A stretch of DNA of 53,850 nt, taken from the NCBI GenBank assembly GCA_020724555.1, contig DYGT01000001.1, positions 1-53,850 of the forward strand. The letters run 5' to 3'. Every line of letters begins with the position of its first letter. The first letter of the stretch is position 1. The notes under the pieces were generated by a model. The model was not told the origin of the DNA. It saw nothing but the letters and a program-made list of their open reading frames with translations, and made no database searches. Positions 279 to 28,835 of the stretch are shown piece after piece. The position numbers were made by a program, and so were the translations under genes. This DNA comes from Candidatus Microgenomatus sp. (GTDB taxonomy: Bacteria; Patescibacteriota; Microgenomatia; UBA8517).

Positions 279-1520
279 CTAAACTGTTTTGAGGGAGTTT
301 AAGAAGTCTTTATTGCTCTCCGTTTTGGCTAAGCGCTCCAACAAGGTTTCCGTGCGCTCGTCTTCAGGCATCATCTCAAGCATGCGCCTTAAGGTGTGGA
401 CCTGTTTAAGCTCCTCCTCGGTATACAAAAGCTCCTCCTGGCGCGTACCAGAGCGCGTGACATCAATCGCAGGAAAAATACGTTTTTCGGCTAAACGGCG
501 GTTCAAATGAAGTTCCATGTTTCCTGTCCCCTTAAACTCCTCATAAATTAGGTCATCCATACGGCTACCCGTATCTACCAAGCAGGTGCCGATTATCGTT
601 AACGAACCTCCGCCTTCAATTTTGCGGGCTGCACCAAAAAATCTTTTAGCCGGGAACAAAGCTTCTGGATCAAACCCGCCGGTTAAAGTCCTACCCGAAG
701 TCGGAAGCGCCAAATTATAAGCACGCGCCATGCGGGTTATAGAATCCAAGACCATAACCACGTCTCCACCCTGTTCAACGATGCGTTTGGCACGCTCAAG
801 CGCCAGCTCTCCCACGCGGGTCTGGTTGGTTGGCGGTTCGTCAAAATTGCTGGCAGCCACTTCGCCCATATTGTTAGTGACTGCTGCCATATGGCGTTTA
901 ATATCCGTTACTTCCTCCGGTCGCTCGCCGATCAAAACCGCAATCAGGTGCGCTTTTCTTTTTTTGCCTTTACCGGATTCGGGGTAATTGGCGGCAATGC
1001 CGGAGATGATGTCTTTAAGCAAGTAGGTTTTGCCTGCTTTTGGCGGAGAAACGATCAGTCCCCTTTGGCCAAAACCGATCGGTGAAATCAAATCAACCAC
1101 GCGCGTACTCAATGGCTCTTTACCGGTTGAAAGATCTATTTGTTCATCAGGGTAGATTGCCAAAAGTTCTTCAAAATCCGTCCTATTTTGCATCTCAACT
1201 GCCGCCCCCCCATTTACTTTTTCAACTTTTAAAAGCCCCCAGTACCGCTCGTTCTCTTTTGGACGTCGGGCAAGACCGGATATCAGGTCTCCATTTCTCA
1301 GGTTAAAACGCCTGATTTGTGAGGCTGAAATATAGACATCACGGTTACTGGCGGCATAATCCGGGCGCAGCAGGCCCGAGCCCTCATTGGCAATATCCAA
1401 AATTCCTTGAATATTTTCCGTGGGAAGCCCCGAATCCGGAAGGACACGGTCATCAACCACTAATCTGGGTTCACCAGCAGAAGAATCTTTAACACCCTCG
1501 TTGTTATTATTAATAACCAT
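279..1520 (-). CDS. rho: Transcription termination factor Rho
   Basis: 413-aa ORF. It has an OB-fold RNA-binding segment (GILDIANEGSGLLRP..DVYISASQIRRFNLRNGDLISG), a Walker A motif PPKAGKT, and a RecA-type core with a C-terminus (TGNMELHLNRRLAEKRIFPAIDV) typical of Rho. Confidence 0.9.
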   Translation of the reverse strand: MVINNNNEGVKDSSAGEPRLVVDDRVLPDSGLPTENIQGILDIANEGSGLLRPDYAASNRDVYISASQIRRFNLRNGDLISGLARRPKENERYWGLLKVEKVNGGAAVEMQNRTDFEELLAIYPDEQIDLSTGKEPLSTRVVDLISPIGFGQRGLIVSPPKAGKTYLLKDIISGIAANYPESGKGKKRKAHLIAVLIGERPEEVTDIKRHMAAVTNNMGEVAASNFDEPPTNQTRVGELALERAKRIVEQGGDVVMVLDSITRMARAYNLALPTSGRTLTGGFDPEALFPAKRFFGAARKIEGGGSLTIIGTCLVDTGSRMDDLIYEEFKGTGNMELHLNRRLAEKRIFPAIDVTRSGTRQEELLYTEEELKQVHTLRRMLEMMPEDERTETLLERLAKTESNKDFLNSLKTV

Positions 1521-15194: not shown

Positions 15195-15216
15195 CTGAAG
15201 AGAAAAGTTCGCAAGT
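15195..15216 (-). promoter_or_regulatory. 3' strand of the 23S processing stem
   Basis: ACTTGCGAACTTTTCTCTTCAG (minus strand) is complementary to CTGAAGAGAAAGGTCGCAAGT at 19767-19747. This is an RNase III-type stem enclosing the 23S. Confidence 0.6.
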
Positions 15217-15327
15217 CGTTTCGACCGATTCGTACTGATACGCTTAACAGATTACTCCGCTTCCACGTCCAGCCGATCAACCTGGTGTTCTTCCAGGAGT
15301 CTAATGATGAACCCTAATCTTAGGGTG

Positions 15328-15360
<33 letters not shown>

Positions 15361-16000
15361 CATAGGAATGTAGCTACCCGGCGTTGCCGCTGACGCGACA
15401 ACCGGCACACTAGGGATTCCTCCAGCCAGGTCCTCTCGTACTGTGGCCAGCTCCCTTCAAGGTTCAAACGCATACACCGGATAGAGTCCGAGCTGTCTCA
15501 CGACGCTCTGAACCCAGCTCACGTACCACTTTAATGGGCGAACAGACCAACCCTTGGGAGGTGCTCCCCCCCCAGGATGTGGTGAGCCGACATCGAGGTA
15601 GCGAACCGCACCGTCGATATGAACTCTCGGGTGCGACTACTCTGTTATCCCCGGGGTAACTTTTATCCGTTAAGCCCCATCCATTTCCACAATGAGATGG
15701 GGGATCACTAAGACCTGCTTTCGCACCTGCTCCACCCGTCGGTGTCGCAGTCAAGCTGGCTTTAAGCTTTACCCTTTCTCCATGATTTCCATCCATGGTA
15801 AGCCAACCTTTGTGCCCCTGCGTTACAATTTGGCAGGGATCCGCCCCAGACAAACTGCCCATCTGACACTTTCCTTGGACCCGTCTTCAGGGCCCATAAG
15901 TAAGTCTTGTGAGCATTCCAAAGAGAGGTGTTTCATTGGCCCCCGCTAAGCGGGGTCCCTCCTACGCTAAACAATTGGAATGTCCAAAACAATGCCAGAA

Positions 16001-16033
<33 letters not shown>

Positions 16034-16131
16034 GTGTATGTAGGCCGCGTCTTCACAGCCAACGCAATTTCGCCGAGTGAAGGGTTAAGACAGTTGTCAT
16101 CTCGTTACGCCTTTCGTGCGGGTCGGAACTT

Positions 16132-16925
16132 CATGATGTTACTCAAATTTTCATTTGAGATCAGACTATATCTTCATCTTGCTATGAAGCTCCACGAGCT
16201 CACGCTCGTGGTTTCTTCTCAGCTCAGCTTCACAGATCAAAAGCTGTTCAGCTTTTGCTGATAAACTTTAGGAGTTGTTGTTTTTTATATTTTCTTTTTC
16301 CCGCACAATTCATTTGATAAGCTAAATCAATCACTTCATTTAAATATTTTTTATTTAAATGGTGTTTTGAAACAACAAGCTTACAGATCTTTGAAAATAA
16401 AAGAAAATCGTTTTTTTTTTGAAGTCTTAAGTCTATATTTTTCAAAATGAGGAATTATAACTTTAGTCAAATCATTGATCGATCTAACTTCGTATTTATA
16501 ATTTTGATCCTTCTTTGAAAACCTTATAGAACCTACACCAAAATAATTTCTTATTTCTCTAAGCACTGAAAGATTTCTCCTGTGCTGAGAAATAGAAAAA
16601 CTTGGTCTGACTTCAATATTTGTTACCATCTTACTTCTACGGTTAAAGGAAACACAAAAACTTCCTTCACCGTCAGTAAAACCGGTAATATAATTTTCAA
16701 ACTCCATGGTCTTTTTTTAATGCAAGAGCTGGCGTATTTCCCGACTTAGTCGGGACTCACCTTTCGGCTCAGTCGTTACGGCTCGATCACTTAGCATAAA
16801 GCATAATAATCTTGCCTCGGTATTGGCATACTCGTTTAACTTAATAGTAGCACGAGTTTAGCTTTCACCGATATTAGCCAGTTTACTTTCCACACATCGC
16901 TGTGGGTTCGGGCAAATTCCACTTT
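16132..16925 (-). mobile_element. Group I intron inserted after U1951 (E. coli 23S numbering), 794 nt
   Basis: The 5' exon ends ...CTTGTCGGGT (U). The intron ends ...GAAGATATAGTCTGATCTC...AACATCATG (terminal G). The 3' exon resumes AAGTTCCGACCCGCACGAA. AGATATAGTC is the conserved group I P7/P3 core motif. Confidence 0.75.
16248..16707 (-). pseudogene. LAGLIDADG homing endonuclease ORF split by a frameshift in an A10 run
   Basis: ORF 16381-16707 (MEFENYITGFTDGEGSF...HFEKYRLKTSKKK) and ORF 16248-16445 (..KKNDFLLFSKICKLVVSKHHL...GKRKY) together align along the intact paralog at 17011-17538. The frames switch inside T10 at 16411-16420. Confidence 0.7.
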
Positions 16926-16959
16926 ACCCGACAAGGAACTTCGCTACCGTAGAACAGTT

Positions 16960-17704
16960 CATTTATGTTAACTCCGATTCTCATCGGAGATCGGACTATA
17001 TCATTCCCGATTAAATCGGGACTTGGCGTGTAGTCTCTGGGGATTCCAAAACATCACTAATTGTATATTTTCGAGTTCTCCCTTTTCCTTTATTAATCTT
17101 TTCTCTAATTTCAAGCAATTCTTTTAAGCCTTCATCAGTAAGATGGCGCTTATCGTACATAATTTTTACTGCTCTTTTAAAAAGCGAAAAATTATACTTT
17201 TTATTGTTTGAAAAAAAATTATATTTATTAAAAAAAGGAATTATTCTTTCCTGAAGTGCTGTTGGATTTGTAACATCATAAGAATACAATCCATCTTTTC
17301 GTCTCTTAATGATTCCGCATTTAAAATGCCTCTTCATAAGAATCAGAATAGTTATGTCTCTTTGTGAAACATTAAATGATAGCACTGGTTGCCATTTCTG
17401 TTTATAATCTTGTTTATAGCGAAGAGAAATATTAAAACTTCCCTCACCGTCAACAAAACCTGCAAAATACCAACCAATCTTTTCAGGAACACTTACTCGA
17501 AATTGTTTTGGTCTTTCCTGCTGATTATCTCTATTCATCTGATTTTCACTTCTGATAAAACTTAAAATAAGTCTATCAGCAGTACAGATGACCTGTCAAG
17601 ATTTTCCAGCATATAGCCAAGTTTTTCCCCGCCCTTGGCGGGGGAATAGCGAATATCTATGAAATTTATTAATCATAGAGCTATTCTCAACTACTATGTT
17701 ACTA
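16960..17704 (-). mobile_element. Group I intron inserted after U1917 (H69 loop) of the 23S, 745 nt
   Basis: The 5' exon ends ...GGCAGCAGTAACTAT (U). The intron ends ...GATATAGTCCGATCTCCGATGAGAATCGGAGTTAACATAAATG (terminal G). The 3' exon resumes AACTGTTCTACGGTAGCGAAGTTCC. Only 34 nt of exon (16926-16959) separate it from the U1951 intron. Confidence 0.75.
17011..17538 (-). CDS. LAGLIDADG homing endonuclease (single-motif type), intron-encoded
   Basis: 175 aa with the motif WYFAGFVDGEGSFNISL. It lies entirely inside the U1917 intron. Confidence 0.85.
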   Translation of the reverse strand: MNRDNQQERPKQFRVSVPEKIGWYFAGFVDGEGSFNISLRYKQDYKQKWQPVLSFNVSQRDITILILMKRHFKCGIIKRRKDGLYSYDVTNPTALQERIIPFFNKYNFFSNNKKYNFSLFKRAVKIMYDKRHLTDEGLKELLEIREKINKGKGRTRKYTISDVLESPETTRQVPI

Positions 17705-18543
17705 ATAGTTACTGCTGCCGTTTACCGGAGCTTCGATTCAAAGCTATCCCCGCCGAAGCGGGGGTCACCCATCCTCTTAACTTACCGGCACTGGGCAGGC
17801 GTCAGCCCGTATACTTCGTCTTACGACTTTGCACGGACCTGTGTTTTTGATAAACAGTCGGATGACAATCGTTAGCTGCGCCCCGTGAGATAGCGCTTGC
17901 GCGGCATCTCATGGGGAGGACATCTTGCGAACTTACGTCCAGCTTGTTTGCCGAGTTCCTTAACCCTCCTTCTCTCGCTCGCCTTAGTCTTCTCAACCAG
18001 CCCACCTGTGTCGGTTTGCGGTACGGCTTATATTAAATCTTGCTGCGAGCCTTTTCTCGCGGACTGAATGGGTTGCCGTTGCCCTGATCTCTCAAGGCTC
18101 CGCACACTGCTCAATTGAACATTTCGGCGGATTTTCCAACCAAAACTATTTTGCAGCATGCACTCCACTTCACGAAGGAGCGACAATCATCCTGTCCTGT
18201 CAACCCCCAGCTCCATCCCGCAAAGCGGGACAAGCGATCTAATACAAGTACTGGAATTTTAACCAGTTATCCATCGACTACGCCATATGGCCTCGCCTTA
18301 GGAGCCGACTTACTCCTGGCAGACGAACTTCACCAGGAAAACCTTGGGCATTCGGCGGTCCGGATTCTCACCGGACTTGTACGCTACTCATACCGGCATT
18401 CTCACTCCCGCCCGGTCCACCACACTTTACAGTGTGACTTCACTCCTGGCGGGACGCTCCCCTACCCCCCGCCATCGGCGGGGCTCTAGCTTCGGCATTT
18501 AACTTGATCCTCGATACATCTTCGGCGCCCTACTCCTTGACCA

Positions 18544-18605
<62 letters not shown>

Positions 18606-19208
18606 GAGTCGAACTTCCTTTCAAACTTAGTTAAAATTTAGAGGCCTTAGCTGAAAGTCTGGGTTGTTTCCCTTTTGTCCCGGAAGCTTAGCCCTCCGGG
18701 GCTGTCTATTCTGCGTGCCGTAGCAGTATTCGGAGTTTGATTGAGATACCTCGCTTACGCTCAGCACCCCATCCAGTAGCTCTACCCCTGCTACGTTTTT
18801 GCTAGAACACGGTCCCTATAGACCTTTCGGGGAGAACCAGCTATCTCCAGGTTCGATTGGCATATTACTCCTAACCACAAGTCGTCCGAGCAAATTGCAA
18901 CTTACAACGGTTCGGGCCTTCCCCCGATTGTCGTCGGGGTTCACCCTGCTCATGGTTAGATCACCTGGTTTCGGGTCTGTAACATAGTACCTTAAGCGCC
19001 CTTTTAAGACTCGGTTTCCCTCTGCCTCCCCCCGTGAGATAGGTCCAAGCCGAAGTGGCTATGGACACATCTCACGGGGTTAAGCAAGCACTATGAAACA
19101 ACTCGCCGGTTCATTCTTCAATAGGCACGAGATCATCCCGCTAAGCGGGACTCTCTCGGTTTGTTCGCAAACAGTTTCAGGTACTATTTCAACGGGCTTA
19201 CAGCCCTG

Positions 19209-19247
<39 letters not shown>

Positions 19248-19746
19248 TACCAACTATATTTAGCCTTGGAGGATGGTTCCCCCAGATTCCCACGGTGTAT
19301 GTGCACCGTAGTACTCAGGAAATCCCTAGAGCCCCGTGAGATTTTGCGTACGAGATTTTCACTCTCTATGATTGGCTATTCCAAGCCATTCCGCTATCTT
19401 ACGGGGTCCCACATTGGGCTCCTACAACCCTCCGATAGCCCCAAAAGGGATCATCGGAGTTTGGGCTTTTGCCATTTCGCTCGCCGCTACTGAGGCAATC
19501 TCGCTTGATTTATCTTCCTCACCCTACTTAGATGTTTCAGTTCGGGTGGTACCCTTCCACTTGCTTAATATTCTGCCAAAGGCAAAAACTTGGGCAAGGG
19601 ATGATCCCGAGTAACCGGGACCGGGTTGTCCCATTCGGAGACCGCCGGGTCACAGGATCAAGACTCCTTTCCGGCGACTATCGCGGTCTTGTGCGTCCTT
19701 CATCGGTAGTTGATACCAGGGCATCCACTGTCTGCGTTTTGTAAAA

Positions 19747-19767
19747 ACTTGCGACCTTTCTCTTCAG
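19747..19767 (-). promoter_or_regulatory. 5' strand of the 23S processing stem
   Basis: CTGAAGAGAAAGGTCGCAAGT pairs with 15216-15195. Confidence 0.6.
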
Positions 19768-26235: not shown

Positions 26236-26838
26236 TTACGACTTAATCCTCATCGCTGGATTCAGCTTCTCCCGCAACCTGCGGGATTCGGCTGCCCCCA
26301 ACTTTGCTGACTTGACGGATTGCGCTTCATCTAGATTATTGCGCGTTCCCGCTCCGGCGTGCGGCTTTCCCGCACCGGGCGAGCCGTAATGCTTGTTCAT
26401 GCTCAATTTAAACTCAGTTATATACTTGAGTTCATCTTTGGTAAGTTTGCGTATATCCTGCCTGCCTTTTACTACCTCAGCTATGCTGCAAAAAGCCTCA
26501 AAACTTTTTGCTTTGTAGCCTAATAGTTTGTGTTTTTGAAAAAACGGAATAATTACATTATAAATATCATCCCTTTTTGTAACTTCAAAAACATAAGCCG
26601 GCAATCGACCATTTTTAGCCGATTTCTTTTGATATACACTACCTATTCCAAAATATTGTTGAATACTTTCCAACAAAGGTTTATTTCCAATTGCTTGCGA
26701 GATAAAAAATCGTAAATCGATTCTGTTATTTTTTCGCAAAACAACTAAAAAACAACCCTCACCTTCAGTTAACCCAACAATGTATTGAGCCAAGAACATT
26801 ACGTATTTCCCTTCATCATTCATATTTTCATAGTACAA
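26236..26838 (-). CDS. LAGLIDADG homing endonuclease encoded in the 16S insertion
   Basis: Motif YIVGLTEGEGCFLVV; the rest aligns with the 23S intron ORFs (IIPFFQKHKLLGYKAKSFEAF...). There is no stop inside the insertion. The frame runs 82 nt into the 16S 3' exon and ends at the TAA of GGATTAAGTCGTAAC. Confidence 0.8.
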   Translation of the reverse strand: MYYENMNDEGKYVMFLAQYIVGLTEGEGCFLVVLRKNNRIDLRFFISQAIGNKPLLESIQQYFGIGSVYQKKSAKNGRLPAYVFEVTKRDDIYNVIIPFFQKHKLLGYKAKSFEAFCSIAEVVKGRQDIRKLTKDELKYITEFKLSMNKHYGSPGAGKPHAGAGTRNNLDEAQSVKSAKLGAAESRRLREKLNPAMRIKS

Positions 26839-27166
26839 ATATTACCCGAAAATATCAATGACTAATATGGAATCTGCTGACTTCCTTGCAAGCAATTATC
26901 TAGTAACTCACAAGGATCTCCCTGGGTCGCAGCAATTTCTGTTCCTGACATGAATGAAAAGCTTAATTTCGCAACTTCCTTCCGACCGCCCAACAGAAGT
27001 CGCTGTGCTTGTTTTTATTCATCCCTGCCATTTGTCTCACGCCCTCCACCCTTTTCAGTTACCTAAAAAGGACTGCGATTATTTTTTTTGACTATTCACC
27101 CCGTTCTACGGGGCAAAATGGGATTTTAACCCACTAGAAATTACTACTGCCAGGCGCGTTGTGCTT
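26318..27166 (-). mobile_element. 849-nt insertion in the 16S decoding centre (between C1402 and C1404, E. coli numbering; boundary ambiguous by 1 nt)
   Basis: The conserved GTACACACCGCC is followed by AAGCACAACGCG..., and the conserved sequence resumes as CGTCAAGTCAGC after ...GAAGCGCAATC. The boundaries lack the U(-1)/terminal-G signature seen in the two 23S introns. Confidence 0.7.
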
Positions 27167-28535
27167 GGCGGTGTGTACAAGACCTGAGAACGTATTCACC
27201 GCGGCATAGCTGATCCGCGATTACTACCAATTCCACGTTCAAGCCGCCGAGTTGCAGGCGGCTATCCCCACTGAGAGGCCGTTTGATGGGATTAGCTCCG
27301 CGTTTCCGCTTGGCAACCCATTGTCGGCCCCATTGTAGCATGTGTGTAGCCCCGGATATAAGGGCCATGCTGACCTGACGTCGTCCCCACTTCCTACCCG
27401 CATAGCGGGTTAGTCTCCCGAGAATATTTAACTCAGGACAGGGGTTGCGCTCGTTACCCCACTTAAGGGAACACCCCACGGCACGAGCTGACGACGGCCA
27501 TGCAACACCTGTGTAATCCCTGTCAACAAAGTTGACATTCCAACCTATCTCTAGGCGGCATTAAGAATTACATGTCAAACCCGGGTAAGGTTCTTCGGTT
27601 CGTTTCGAATTAAACCACATGCTCCACTGGTTGTGCAGGTCCCCGTCAATTCCTTTGAGTTTTACGCTTGCGCGCGTACTCCCCAGGCGGCTCGCTTCAC
27701 GCGTTAGCTTACGCCCATGATCCCATCCATTACCTGTAACAAACCAGAAATATAAAATTCATACAGAGAATGGATGGGACCAGGGGCTAGCGAGCATCGT
27801 TTACGGCTAGGACTACAGGGGTCTCTAATCCCTTTCGCTACCCTAGCTTTCGTCCCTGAGCGTCAAAGAATCCCTAGCTACCCGCCTTCGCCCTTGGAAT
27901 TCCTACCGATATCAACGGATTTCACCCCTACACCGGTAGTTCTAGTAGCCCCGAGATCTTTCTATCCTGGCAGTATTACATCCCCTCCTGAGGTTAAGCC
28001 CCAGTCTTTGAAATGTAACTTACCAAGACGCCTGCGAACGCTTTACGCCCAATAAATCCGGGCAACGCTTGCACCCTCCGTATTACCGCAGCTGCTGGCA
28101 CGAAGTTAGCGGGTGCTTATTCGCCATAGACTCTCACCTATGGCAAAAGAAGTTTACGACCCGAAGGCCTTCATCCTTCACGCGGTGTCGCGGCGTCAGA
28201 CTTTCGTCCATTGCGCACGATTCCCAGTTGCTGCCACCCGTAGGTGTATGGCCCGTGTCTCAGTGCCATTCTGGGGGGCCACGCTCTCACGCCCCCTAAC
28301 CGTCATTGTCTTGGTAGGCCATTACCCTACCAACTAACTGATGGTACGCAGGCTCCTCTCTCGGCGAATAGTTACATCCTTTCTCCCATCCTTCATCTGG
28401 GAAGACAATGTTACCATTATCTCACCAAAAGAAGGATGGGGCTTATGCGGTATTAACCCCGCTTTCGCGGGGCTATTCCCCACCAAGAGGTAGATTCCTA
28501 CGCGTTACTCAGCCGTTCGCGACTCCCTGTCCATC

Positions 28536-28799
28536 TTATGCTCTATTCAAACTATTACTGATTCTTAATTTCAGCTGTCTATATGAACTAGAAAACTTCT
28601 TCAAATTATTTTCTCTTTTTATGCTATCTTTCTTTGATAAAAAAGCTTCATAATAAACAAGTTTCCAAGGAATACCATATTTAGTAGATTTGTTTAAACC
28701 TTTGTTATGTTCATTAAATCTTTTTTTTAAATCTCTCGTAGAACCAATATAAATTCTTCTTTGGTATTTAGAACTTTTTAAGATATAAACATAATTCAT
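28536..28799 (-). CDS. GIY-YIG nuclease-family protein, copy 3, inside 16S helix 6
   Basis: Sequence MNYVYILKSSKYQRRIYIGSTRDLKKRFNEHNKGLNKSTKYGIPWKLVYYEAF...IKRENNLKK. The supplied ORF start at 28835 is an upstream in-frame ATG that abuts the rRNA stem. Confidence 0.8.
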   Translation of the reverse strand: MNYVYILKSSKYQRRIYIGSTRDLKKRFNEHNKGLNKSTKYGIPWKLVYYEAFLSKKDSIKRENNLKKFSSSYRQLKLRISNSLNRA

Positions 28800-28835
28800 A
28801 TTTATAAAATTATATGGCATTTTTATAAAGCACAT
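28536..28835 (-). mobile_element. 300-nt insertion forming the loop of 16S helix 6, consisting almost entirely of the GIY-YIG ORF
   Basis: It is closed by a perfect 11-bp stem, CCCTGTCCATC (28846-28836) with GATGGACAGGG (28535-28525). These sit where h6 lies, between GCAAGTGGAACG and AGTCGCGAACGGCTGAGTAACGCG. Confidence 0.7.

Follow-up and report, generated by a model that had tools for sequence, protein, structure and literature searches.

The insert and its site

The window analysed here (the whole stretch of 53,850 nucleotides, from Candidatus Microgenomatus sp.) carries an rRNA operon, and with it the 16S gene, on the minus strand. This 16S gene is interrupted at the decoding centre, a universally conserved site, by an insert of 849 nt. 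The upstream exon reads ...UUGUACACACCGCC up to the break and ends in ...GUACACACCGCC at 27167 (-). The downstream exon restarts with CGUCAAG at 26317 (-) and runs to the anti-Shine-Dalgarno end, and the junction is GUACACACCGCC/CGUCA with a break after C1402 or C1403. One C is common to both junctions: the insert comprises either 27166-26318 (break after C1403) or 27167-26319 (break after C1402), and the ligated product is the same. Coordinates and Pfam match agree with the first-pass annotation, in which a LAGLIDADG-bearing insert of 849 nt splits the gene at C1402/C1403, and the junctions likewise bear out its remark that the upstream exon does not end in U, nor the insert in G. As the genome (94% complete) contains a single 16S gene, the insert must be removed from the RNA, as had also been argued, and the interrupted gene cannot be a spare pseudogene.

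A comparison of insertion sites across CPR 16S genes, as the first-pass annotation had suggested, was made by searching 139 genomes of the window's order at the DNA level, with copies extracted end to end. A homologous insert occupies the identical 16S site in 23 further genomes (24 copies with the window), and the insert is therefore no chance feature. Full-length relatives are ~68-75% identical to the window copy. Two of the copies (L020 in genome G020 and L024 in genome G010) are ORF-less, 404 nt long and possess only a short hairpin in domain 4 (D4), and a third (L019, 542 nt) is an intermediate in which only the last codons of the endonuclease gene are left. The 404-nt forms define the minimal ribozyme, and the three short forms together the RNA whose conservation does not depend on the protein.

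The exact 5'-junction motif occurs in 36 stretches of a species-level genome collection, and 21 of these also match the family model for domains 5 and 6 (D5-D6). The double matches are CPR-type records (Woesebacteria, Blackburnbacteria, Microgenomates, "Patescibacteria group") and contigs labelled "uncultured Gammaproteobacteria". Across the phylum, sampled evenly with 400 genomes, the motif is confined to the family of the window. Because the motif was seen, among the genomes searched, only in CPR-type genomes or in this family, the intron is best read as a lineage-restricted subfamily of the wider 16IS9 class. The 5'-junction pattern was also encountered outside CPR (Komagataeibacter, Burkholderiaceae and others); these candidates gave no model match at E≤0.01, are most likely chance occurrences in ordinary 16S genes, and were dropped.

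Among the records titled 'uncultured Gammaproteobacteria bacterium', L046, L048, L054, L055, L058 and L067 carry the CPR intron family. At least L048, L058 and L059 appear to be contigs of the window's own family, and the Gammaproteobacteria titles of L048 and L058 appear to be mislabels.

Searches with Rfam models

Rfam group I and group II models have no match in the window insert at gathering score, and all 24 copies remain below the gathering scores. In a permissive scan, RF01998 (group II D2-J2/3-D3) reaches 30.5 bits on the insert against a threshold of 35 (E 0.0017), and aligns the invariant GUCAGC..CAUAnUAG (hairpin) GAAGG, the J2/3-D3 core, with high posterior probability. The same model gives 27-28 bits on two relatives and 71.8 bits on an Oceanobacillus IIC intron as positive control. 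RF00029 (D5-D6), RF02001 and the other group II models find nothing in the insert.

Further insertions are present in the rRNA genes of the window. The 23S gene (15207-19754) spans 4548 nt, compared with a model of 2925 positions, and contains two group I-like matches, both short of the Rfam gathering score:

16142-16329, minus strand: group I-like match in 23S (43.1 bits, E 9e-9)
16972-17191, minus strand: group I-like match in 23S (34.3 bits, E 4e-6)

A second 16S insertion of ~301 nt, near helix 6, is filled by an ORF of 99 amino acids (28536-28835, minus strand), whose motif YVYIL..YIGST.DL..R..EH looks like a GIY-YIG nuclease domain. GIY-YIG genes are described from CPR rRNA insertions that are not intron-like in the survey of Tsurumaki et al. 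(PMC11270868).

Secondary structure of the insert

All six helical domains of the group II type (D1-D6) are present and supported by covariation among the 24 copies. The 3' part was taken from an alignment of the copies (A1). For the 5' part, from the exon to the 5' strand of D4, a hand-curated structure of 81 pairs was laid over a second alignment (A2, 24 copies). The features of the intron are as follows:

26319..27167, minus strand: whole intron, 849 nt (C1402 option, intron end ...AAU; 26318-27166 in the C1403 option; exon flanks the same in 24 genomes)
27158..27167, minus strand: 5'-terminal linker, 10 nt in the window (sequence and length vary in relatives)
27154..27157, minus strand: invariant GCGC, with the next base the GUGYG homologue, directly before the D1 basal helix (position matches GUGUG and D1 stem of Oceanobacillus IIC)
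26922..27153, minus strand: domain 1 with basal helix, GGGUUAAAAUCCC-type hairpin, GUAA-capped arm and EBS1-bearing arm (covariation)
26985..26991, minus strand: EBS1 (and delta/EBS3-like) loop GGGCGGU (invariant in 24/24 copies, loop of covarying helix 14)
26879..26920, minus strand: domain 2 hairpin (helices 15-16, 97-99% paired, 6 pairs compensatory)
26876..26878, minus strand: J2/3 linker AGC, invariant (aligns to J2/3 of Rfam RF01998, as does that of a true IIC intron)
26807..26872, minus strand: domain 3 with AUAUUA / GAAGG internal loop and extended hairpin (helices 17-19)
26385..26803, minus strand: domain 4, basal stem CGUAAUG/CAUUACG around the endonuclease gene (pairing in relatives)
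26348..26383, minus strand: domain 5 with 10-bp lower helix including the CGC triad, AC bulge, 4-bp upper helix and GAAAG loop (99.6% paired, 5 compensatory pairs)
26322..26344, minus strand: domain 6, 4-bp helix with 15-nt loop (helix 3, all four pairs compensatory)

In D1-D3, 90.3% of cells are paired, compared with 37-48% when the partners are slid by 1-3 columns; compensatory changes occur in 53 of the 81 pairs, and none of 500 shuffles reaches any of these measures. The basal helix of D1 is paired throughout (100%, three of its four pairs compensatory), and pairing reaches 92-100%, with compensatory changes, in most of the other D1 helices; helices 10-13 of the EBS1-bearing arm are weaker (50-82%). 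The basal stem of D4 pairs at 7/7 positions in 19 of the 21 scorable copies; L017 and L018 show compensatory changes there. For D5 and D6 taken together the paired fraction is 95.8%, compared with 34-41% in slid alignments, and nine of their 19 pairs are compensatory.

On the evidence of the aligned copies, D5 is the strongest single argument for the group II class. Its 2-nt bulge lies on the 3' strand and reads UC in the relatives and AC in the window; the loop comprises 5-6 nt, and a GNRA tetraloop is absent from D5. In 23 of the 24 copies the G of the triad forms a G.U wobble. The window copy alone possesses G-C at this pair, together with one extra bulged A, and these changes could weaken catalysis. 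As the 16S gene is unique in the genome, the window intron is assumed to be active despite this unusual D5. Another deviating D5 is found in L003 (~1440-1480, minus strand, genome G065), where an extra 36-nt module is inserted in the 3' strand, facing the catalytic triad.

D6 begins three bases after D5 and is followed by an invariant AAU and then by the exon. If splicing follows C1402, the 3' end before CCGUCA reads ...GCGCAAU in 24/24 copies, an AY-type end with D6 just upstream. The ...AAU end and the A of J2/3 (gamma), as in the Oceanobacillus IIC intron, would favour this C1402 option. The candidate branch point is the A at 26326, which is invariant and precedes the 3' end by 8 nt. In the window it is unbulged and lies at the loop edge; L016, L024 and L029 are the only copies in which, by eye, pairs enclose it on either side.

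The 5' end of the insert and the exon-binding loop

A linker precedes GCGC in 24/24 copies. Counted from the end of CCGCC it is 9-56 nt long, and 10-57 nt long with the shared C assigned to the intron; it forms a hairpin in several relatives. The 3' end of the linker varies (AAC, UGC, AUC, UUC, AAA, CAC, UAC) and has no covarying partner by eye. The base after GCGC is already part of the covarying basal helix of D1. GUGYG is not found at the 5' splice site; its homologue, GCGC plus the next base, begins after 10 nt of intron (10-57 nt in relatives). The 5' end is thus non-canonical, because a variable linker separates the exon from the internal GUGYG homologue. The first-pass annotation had rightly noted that the ends look non-canonical; on the 3' side, however, ...AAU following D5 and D6 is what a group II intron normally has. 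A pairing of the 5' GCGC region with the D6 strand was considered and dropped, as the two do not covary.

The linker and GCGC of the window (27153-27167, minus strand) closely repeat a segment of the D1 arm leading to the EBS1 hairpin (26998-27012, minus strand), with 13 of 15 positions identical. This 15-nt repeat was not seen in any relative inspected, and it may be due to chance or to a local duplication that created the window linker.

The loop GGGCGGU complements A1398-C1404 of 16S, ACCGCC(C), across the splice junction. EBS1 and IBS1 are both invariant, and their complementarity is without covariation support; by our own estimate, GGGCGGU has a chance expectation of ~0.05 in 849 nt.

The endonuclease gene in domain 4

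D4 contains an endonuclease ORF and no reverse transcriptase:

26236..26799, minus strand: ORF of a single-motif LAGLIDADG homing endonuclease, 187 aa from ATG (Pfam and solved-structure matches)

The ORF matches Pfam LAGLIDADG_1 with E 7e-20, and its residues 5-136 match solved endonucleases of the I-OnuI family (best E 5e-34). A longer reading of 200 aa from TTG at 26838 was dropped in favour of the ATG at 26799, which is kept in the relatives and sited at the D4 stem. Since the start codon belongs to the 5' strand of the D4 basal stem, ribozyme folding may mask the initiation of endonuclease translation. At 26797-26812 (minus strand), the conserved GAAGG of D3 is placed 8-9 nt upstream of the endonuclease start, at the position of a ribosome-binding site.

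As had been read before, the ORF has no stop within the insert and terminates at a TAA at 26238-26236, 82 nt into the 3' exon. The catalytic domain corresponds approximately to residues 5-136, and the final ~45 aa stem from reading on through D5, D6 and 82 nt of exon; the solved-structure match stops at residue 136, just ahead of the 3' strand of D4. In every ORF-bearing relative the frame passes the closing strand of D4 into D5. The stops of the relatives are spread from 49 nt ahead of the 3' splice site to 82 nt beyond it, the tails are in differing frames, and the longest tail among the copies is that of the window. Because the stops are scattered, the frames differ and the structure match ends at residue 136, the extension into the exon (helix 44) is judged to be a tolerated, unconstrained tail. 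L004 contains an in-frame stop within the LAGLIDADG motif.

Class, splicing and alternative explanations

The first-pass annotation had left the class of the element open. Group II covariance models and the comparison among CPR identify a group IIC-type intron: the insert is very probably a compact intron of this type with a LAGLIDADG endonuclease in D4, belonging to the 16IS9 class and sharing features of the rns-1396 family. The ribozyme would fold within the pre-16S transcript, where the EBS1 loop GGGCGGU would pair with ACCGC(C) and so place the 5' splice site at C1402/C1403, which precedes the GUGYG homologue by 10 nt. The intron would splice itself out and the exons would be ligated, ...CACCGC to CCGUCAAG, restoring CCGCCCGUCA. 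Spread would take place at the DNA level, with a homodimer of the endonuclease cutting intron-less 16S genes at the insertion site.

For the first splicing step, hydrolysis, with a linear intron instead of a lariat as product, is slightly favoured, because the first intron base is not the conserved G, a 5' linker is present and the branch A is mostly unbulged. A further proposal, which we consider unlikely, is that in this CPR lineage the 5' splice site is set only by EBS1-IBS1, 10-57 nt ahead of the GUGYG homologue, with hydrolytic splicing, and that translation of the endonuclease and folding of the core are mutually exclusive. Such exclusivity would follow from the endonuclease frame, which starts in the D4 stem and always runs through D5 (and through D6 where there is no stop). 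If so, the intron would carry an internal switch between its own spread and the maturation of the rRNA, which is undescribed for group II introns.

A group I intron that is degenerate or atypical, with its boundaries shifted, would be suggested by the LAGLIDADG gene, a type usual in group I introns, and by the group I-like character of the two 23S inserts of the window. A group I fold of this kind was the outcome that the first-pass annotation had named as speaking against its description, after finding no group I core. No Intron_gpI (RF00028) match is present in the insert even at E≤10, and the same model gives 43 and 34 bits on the 23S inserts; the exon end lacks U, the terminal G is missing, and the covarying fold contains D5, J2/3 and the EBS1 loop, not P3-P9. 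From sequence and fold, the group I reading is effectively refuted, with next to no probability left to it. Archaeal rRNA introns likewise carry LAGLIDADG genes, and an archaeal-type bulge-helix-bulge intron cut by a splicing endonuclease would share this gene type. No conserved pairing between the two junctions is visible by eye, the region of the 5' junction is variable, and a complete group II core is present instead; this explanation has an equally negligible probability.

The remaining alternatives concern the fate of the RNA. Fragmenting IVSs occur in bacterial rRNA, and removal by a host RNase (RNase III type) without ligation, or a dead ribozyme in the window copy, would result in a fragmented 16S. 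The unique change of the window copy at the catalytic G.U pair of D5 and its extra bulge would fit the latter. Across the family, however, the core and the exon-binding loop have been kept, with compensatory changes, which argues for selection for splicing; a long terminal duplex of the insert ends is absent from the minimum-free-energy fold, the 5' end varies in length and sequence, and it is difficult to see how a decoding centre broken between C1402 and C1403 would function. Fragmentation is accordingly regarded as very unlikely. Still less probable is splicing just before GCGC, with the linker (10 nt, up to 57 nt) kept in the mature 16S or trimmed separately. The GUGYG homologue is situated there, and some linkers form hairpins resembling expansion segments. 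The invariant EBS1 loop, however, matches the 16S exon and not the variable 3' end of the linker, the site is universally conserved, and characterised linker-bearing introns splice upstream of GUGYG (PMC4424553).

Comparison with known systems

Class, site, endonuclease type and 5' linker of the intron are all already published. Mildly new are the escape of the subfamily from Rfam thresholds, the hallmarks that CPR copies share with those of Thiotrichaceae, and the window copy with its unusual D5. The main value is a correction: a seemingly unclassifiable element in the most conserved 16S stretch is an ordinary member of a published class. As minimal ribozymes, the 404-nt forms without an ORF would lend themselves to studies of how a group II core tolerates a 5' linker.

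In CPR 16S genes, Tsurumaki et al. (2024, J Bacteriol, PMC11270868) report 53 "group II intron-like" inserts, only at position 1400 (site 16IS9), of which 39 encode LAGLIDADG. As described there, the 16IS9 inserts agree with the window intron in host group (CPR), site, LAGLIDADG_1 and lack of a reverse transcriptase; the main text does not seem to describe a secondary structure, a linker or D5/D6. That survey (PMC11270868) relied on Rfam models to call group II introns, and by this standard the window copy and the 23 relatives would probably have received no class. Since surveys at Rfam thresholds miss the subfamily, the number of group II introns published for CPR 16S is probably too low.

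The bacterial 'rns-1396' IIC-LHE family is known from Thiomargarita (Salman et al. 2012, as cited in PMC13190283; Genome Biol Evol 2026). All its members possess a 5' terminal linker and a single-motif LHE in domain IV, and EBS2 is absent (PMC13190283). The window intron resembles this family, by its published features, in the IIC-type backbone, the 16S gene as host, the single-motif LHE in DIV, the 5' linker and the IBS1 and 3'-exon contacts. The family is reported only from Thiotrichaceae (Gammaproteobacteria), and its site number is probably the same position as 16IS9 under another numbering. The 2026 survey (PMC13190283) overlooked the CPR copies with 5' linker and single-motif domain IV endonuclease. 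A 3'-junction pattern search for the Thiotrichaceae rns-1396 intron retrieved three chance hits in protein genes and none in 16S.

IIC introns of the Oceanobacillus iheyensis type (L031, L034) have the D5 register in common with the CPR intron (CGC triad, G.U seventh pair, 2-nt bulge); in L031 the bulge is AC, with a U.G pair next to it. The D5 comparison was made by direct inspection; the family covariance model (D4-D5-D6-exon) misses the Oceanobacillus introns, a result that is uninformative because the model holds family-specific flanks. Further likenesses are J2/3 AGC, the D3 motif AUAGUA/GAAGG, the terminal ...AU and, near the beginning of D1, a GGG...CCC hairpin. The Oceanobacillus introns differ in carrying an RT gene, in having GUGUG right at the splice site after a terminator hairpin and in their strong matches to RF02001 and RF01998. 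In contrast, D1 of the CPR intron has no RF02001 match, and its D6 combines a short helix with a large loop.

Fungal rRNA group II introns, mostly with LAGLIDADG, splice 1-33 nt upstream of GUGYG and have lost EBS2 and the branch-site motif, according to PMC4424553 (citing Li et al. 2011). The fungal mitochondrial IIB1 rRNA introns and C.te.I1 of C. tetani resemble the window intron in the extra nucleotides between 5' exon and GUGYG, and the fungal introns also in their rRNA hosts and mostly LAGLIDADG ORFs. Excision of the fungal introns is reportedly linear and hydrolytic. They differ from the window intron in backbone (IIB1 versus IIC-like) and compartment. Unlike the fungal IIB1 introns with their loss of the branch site, the window intron keeps an invariant A next to D6, by which branching would be possible.
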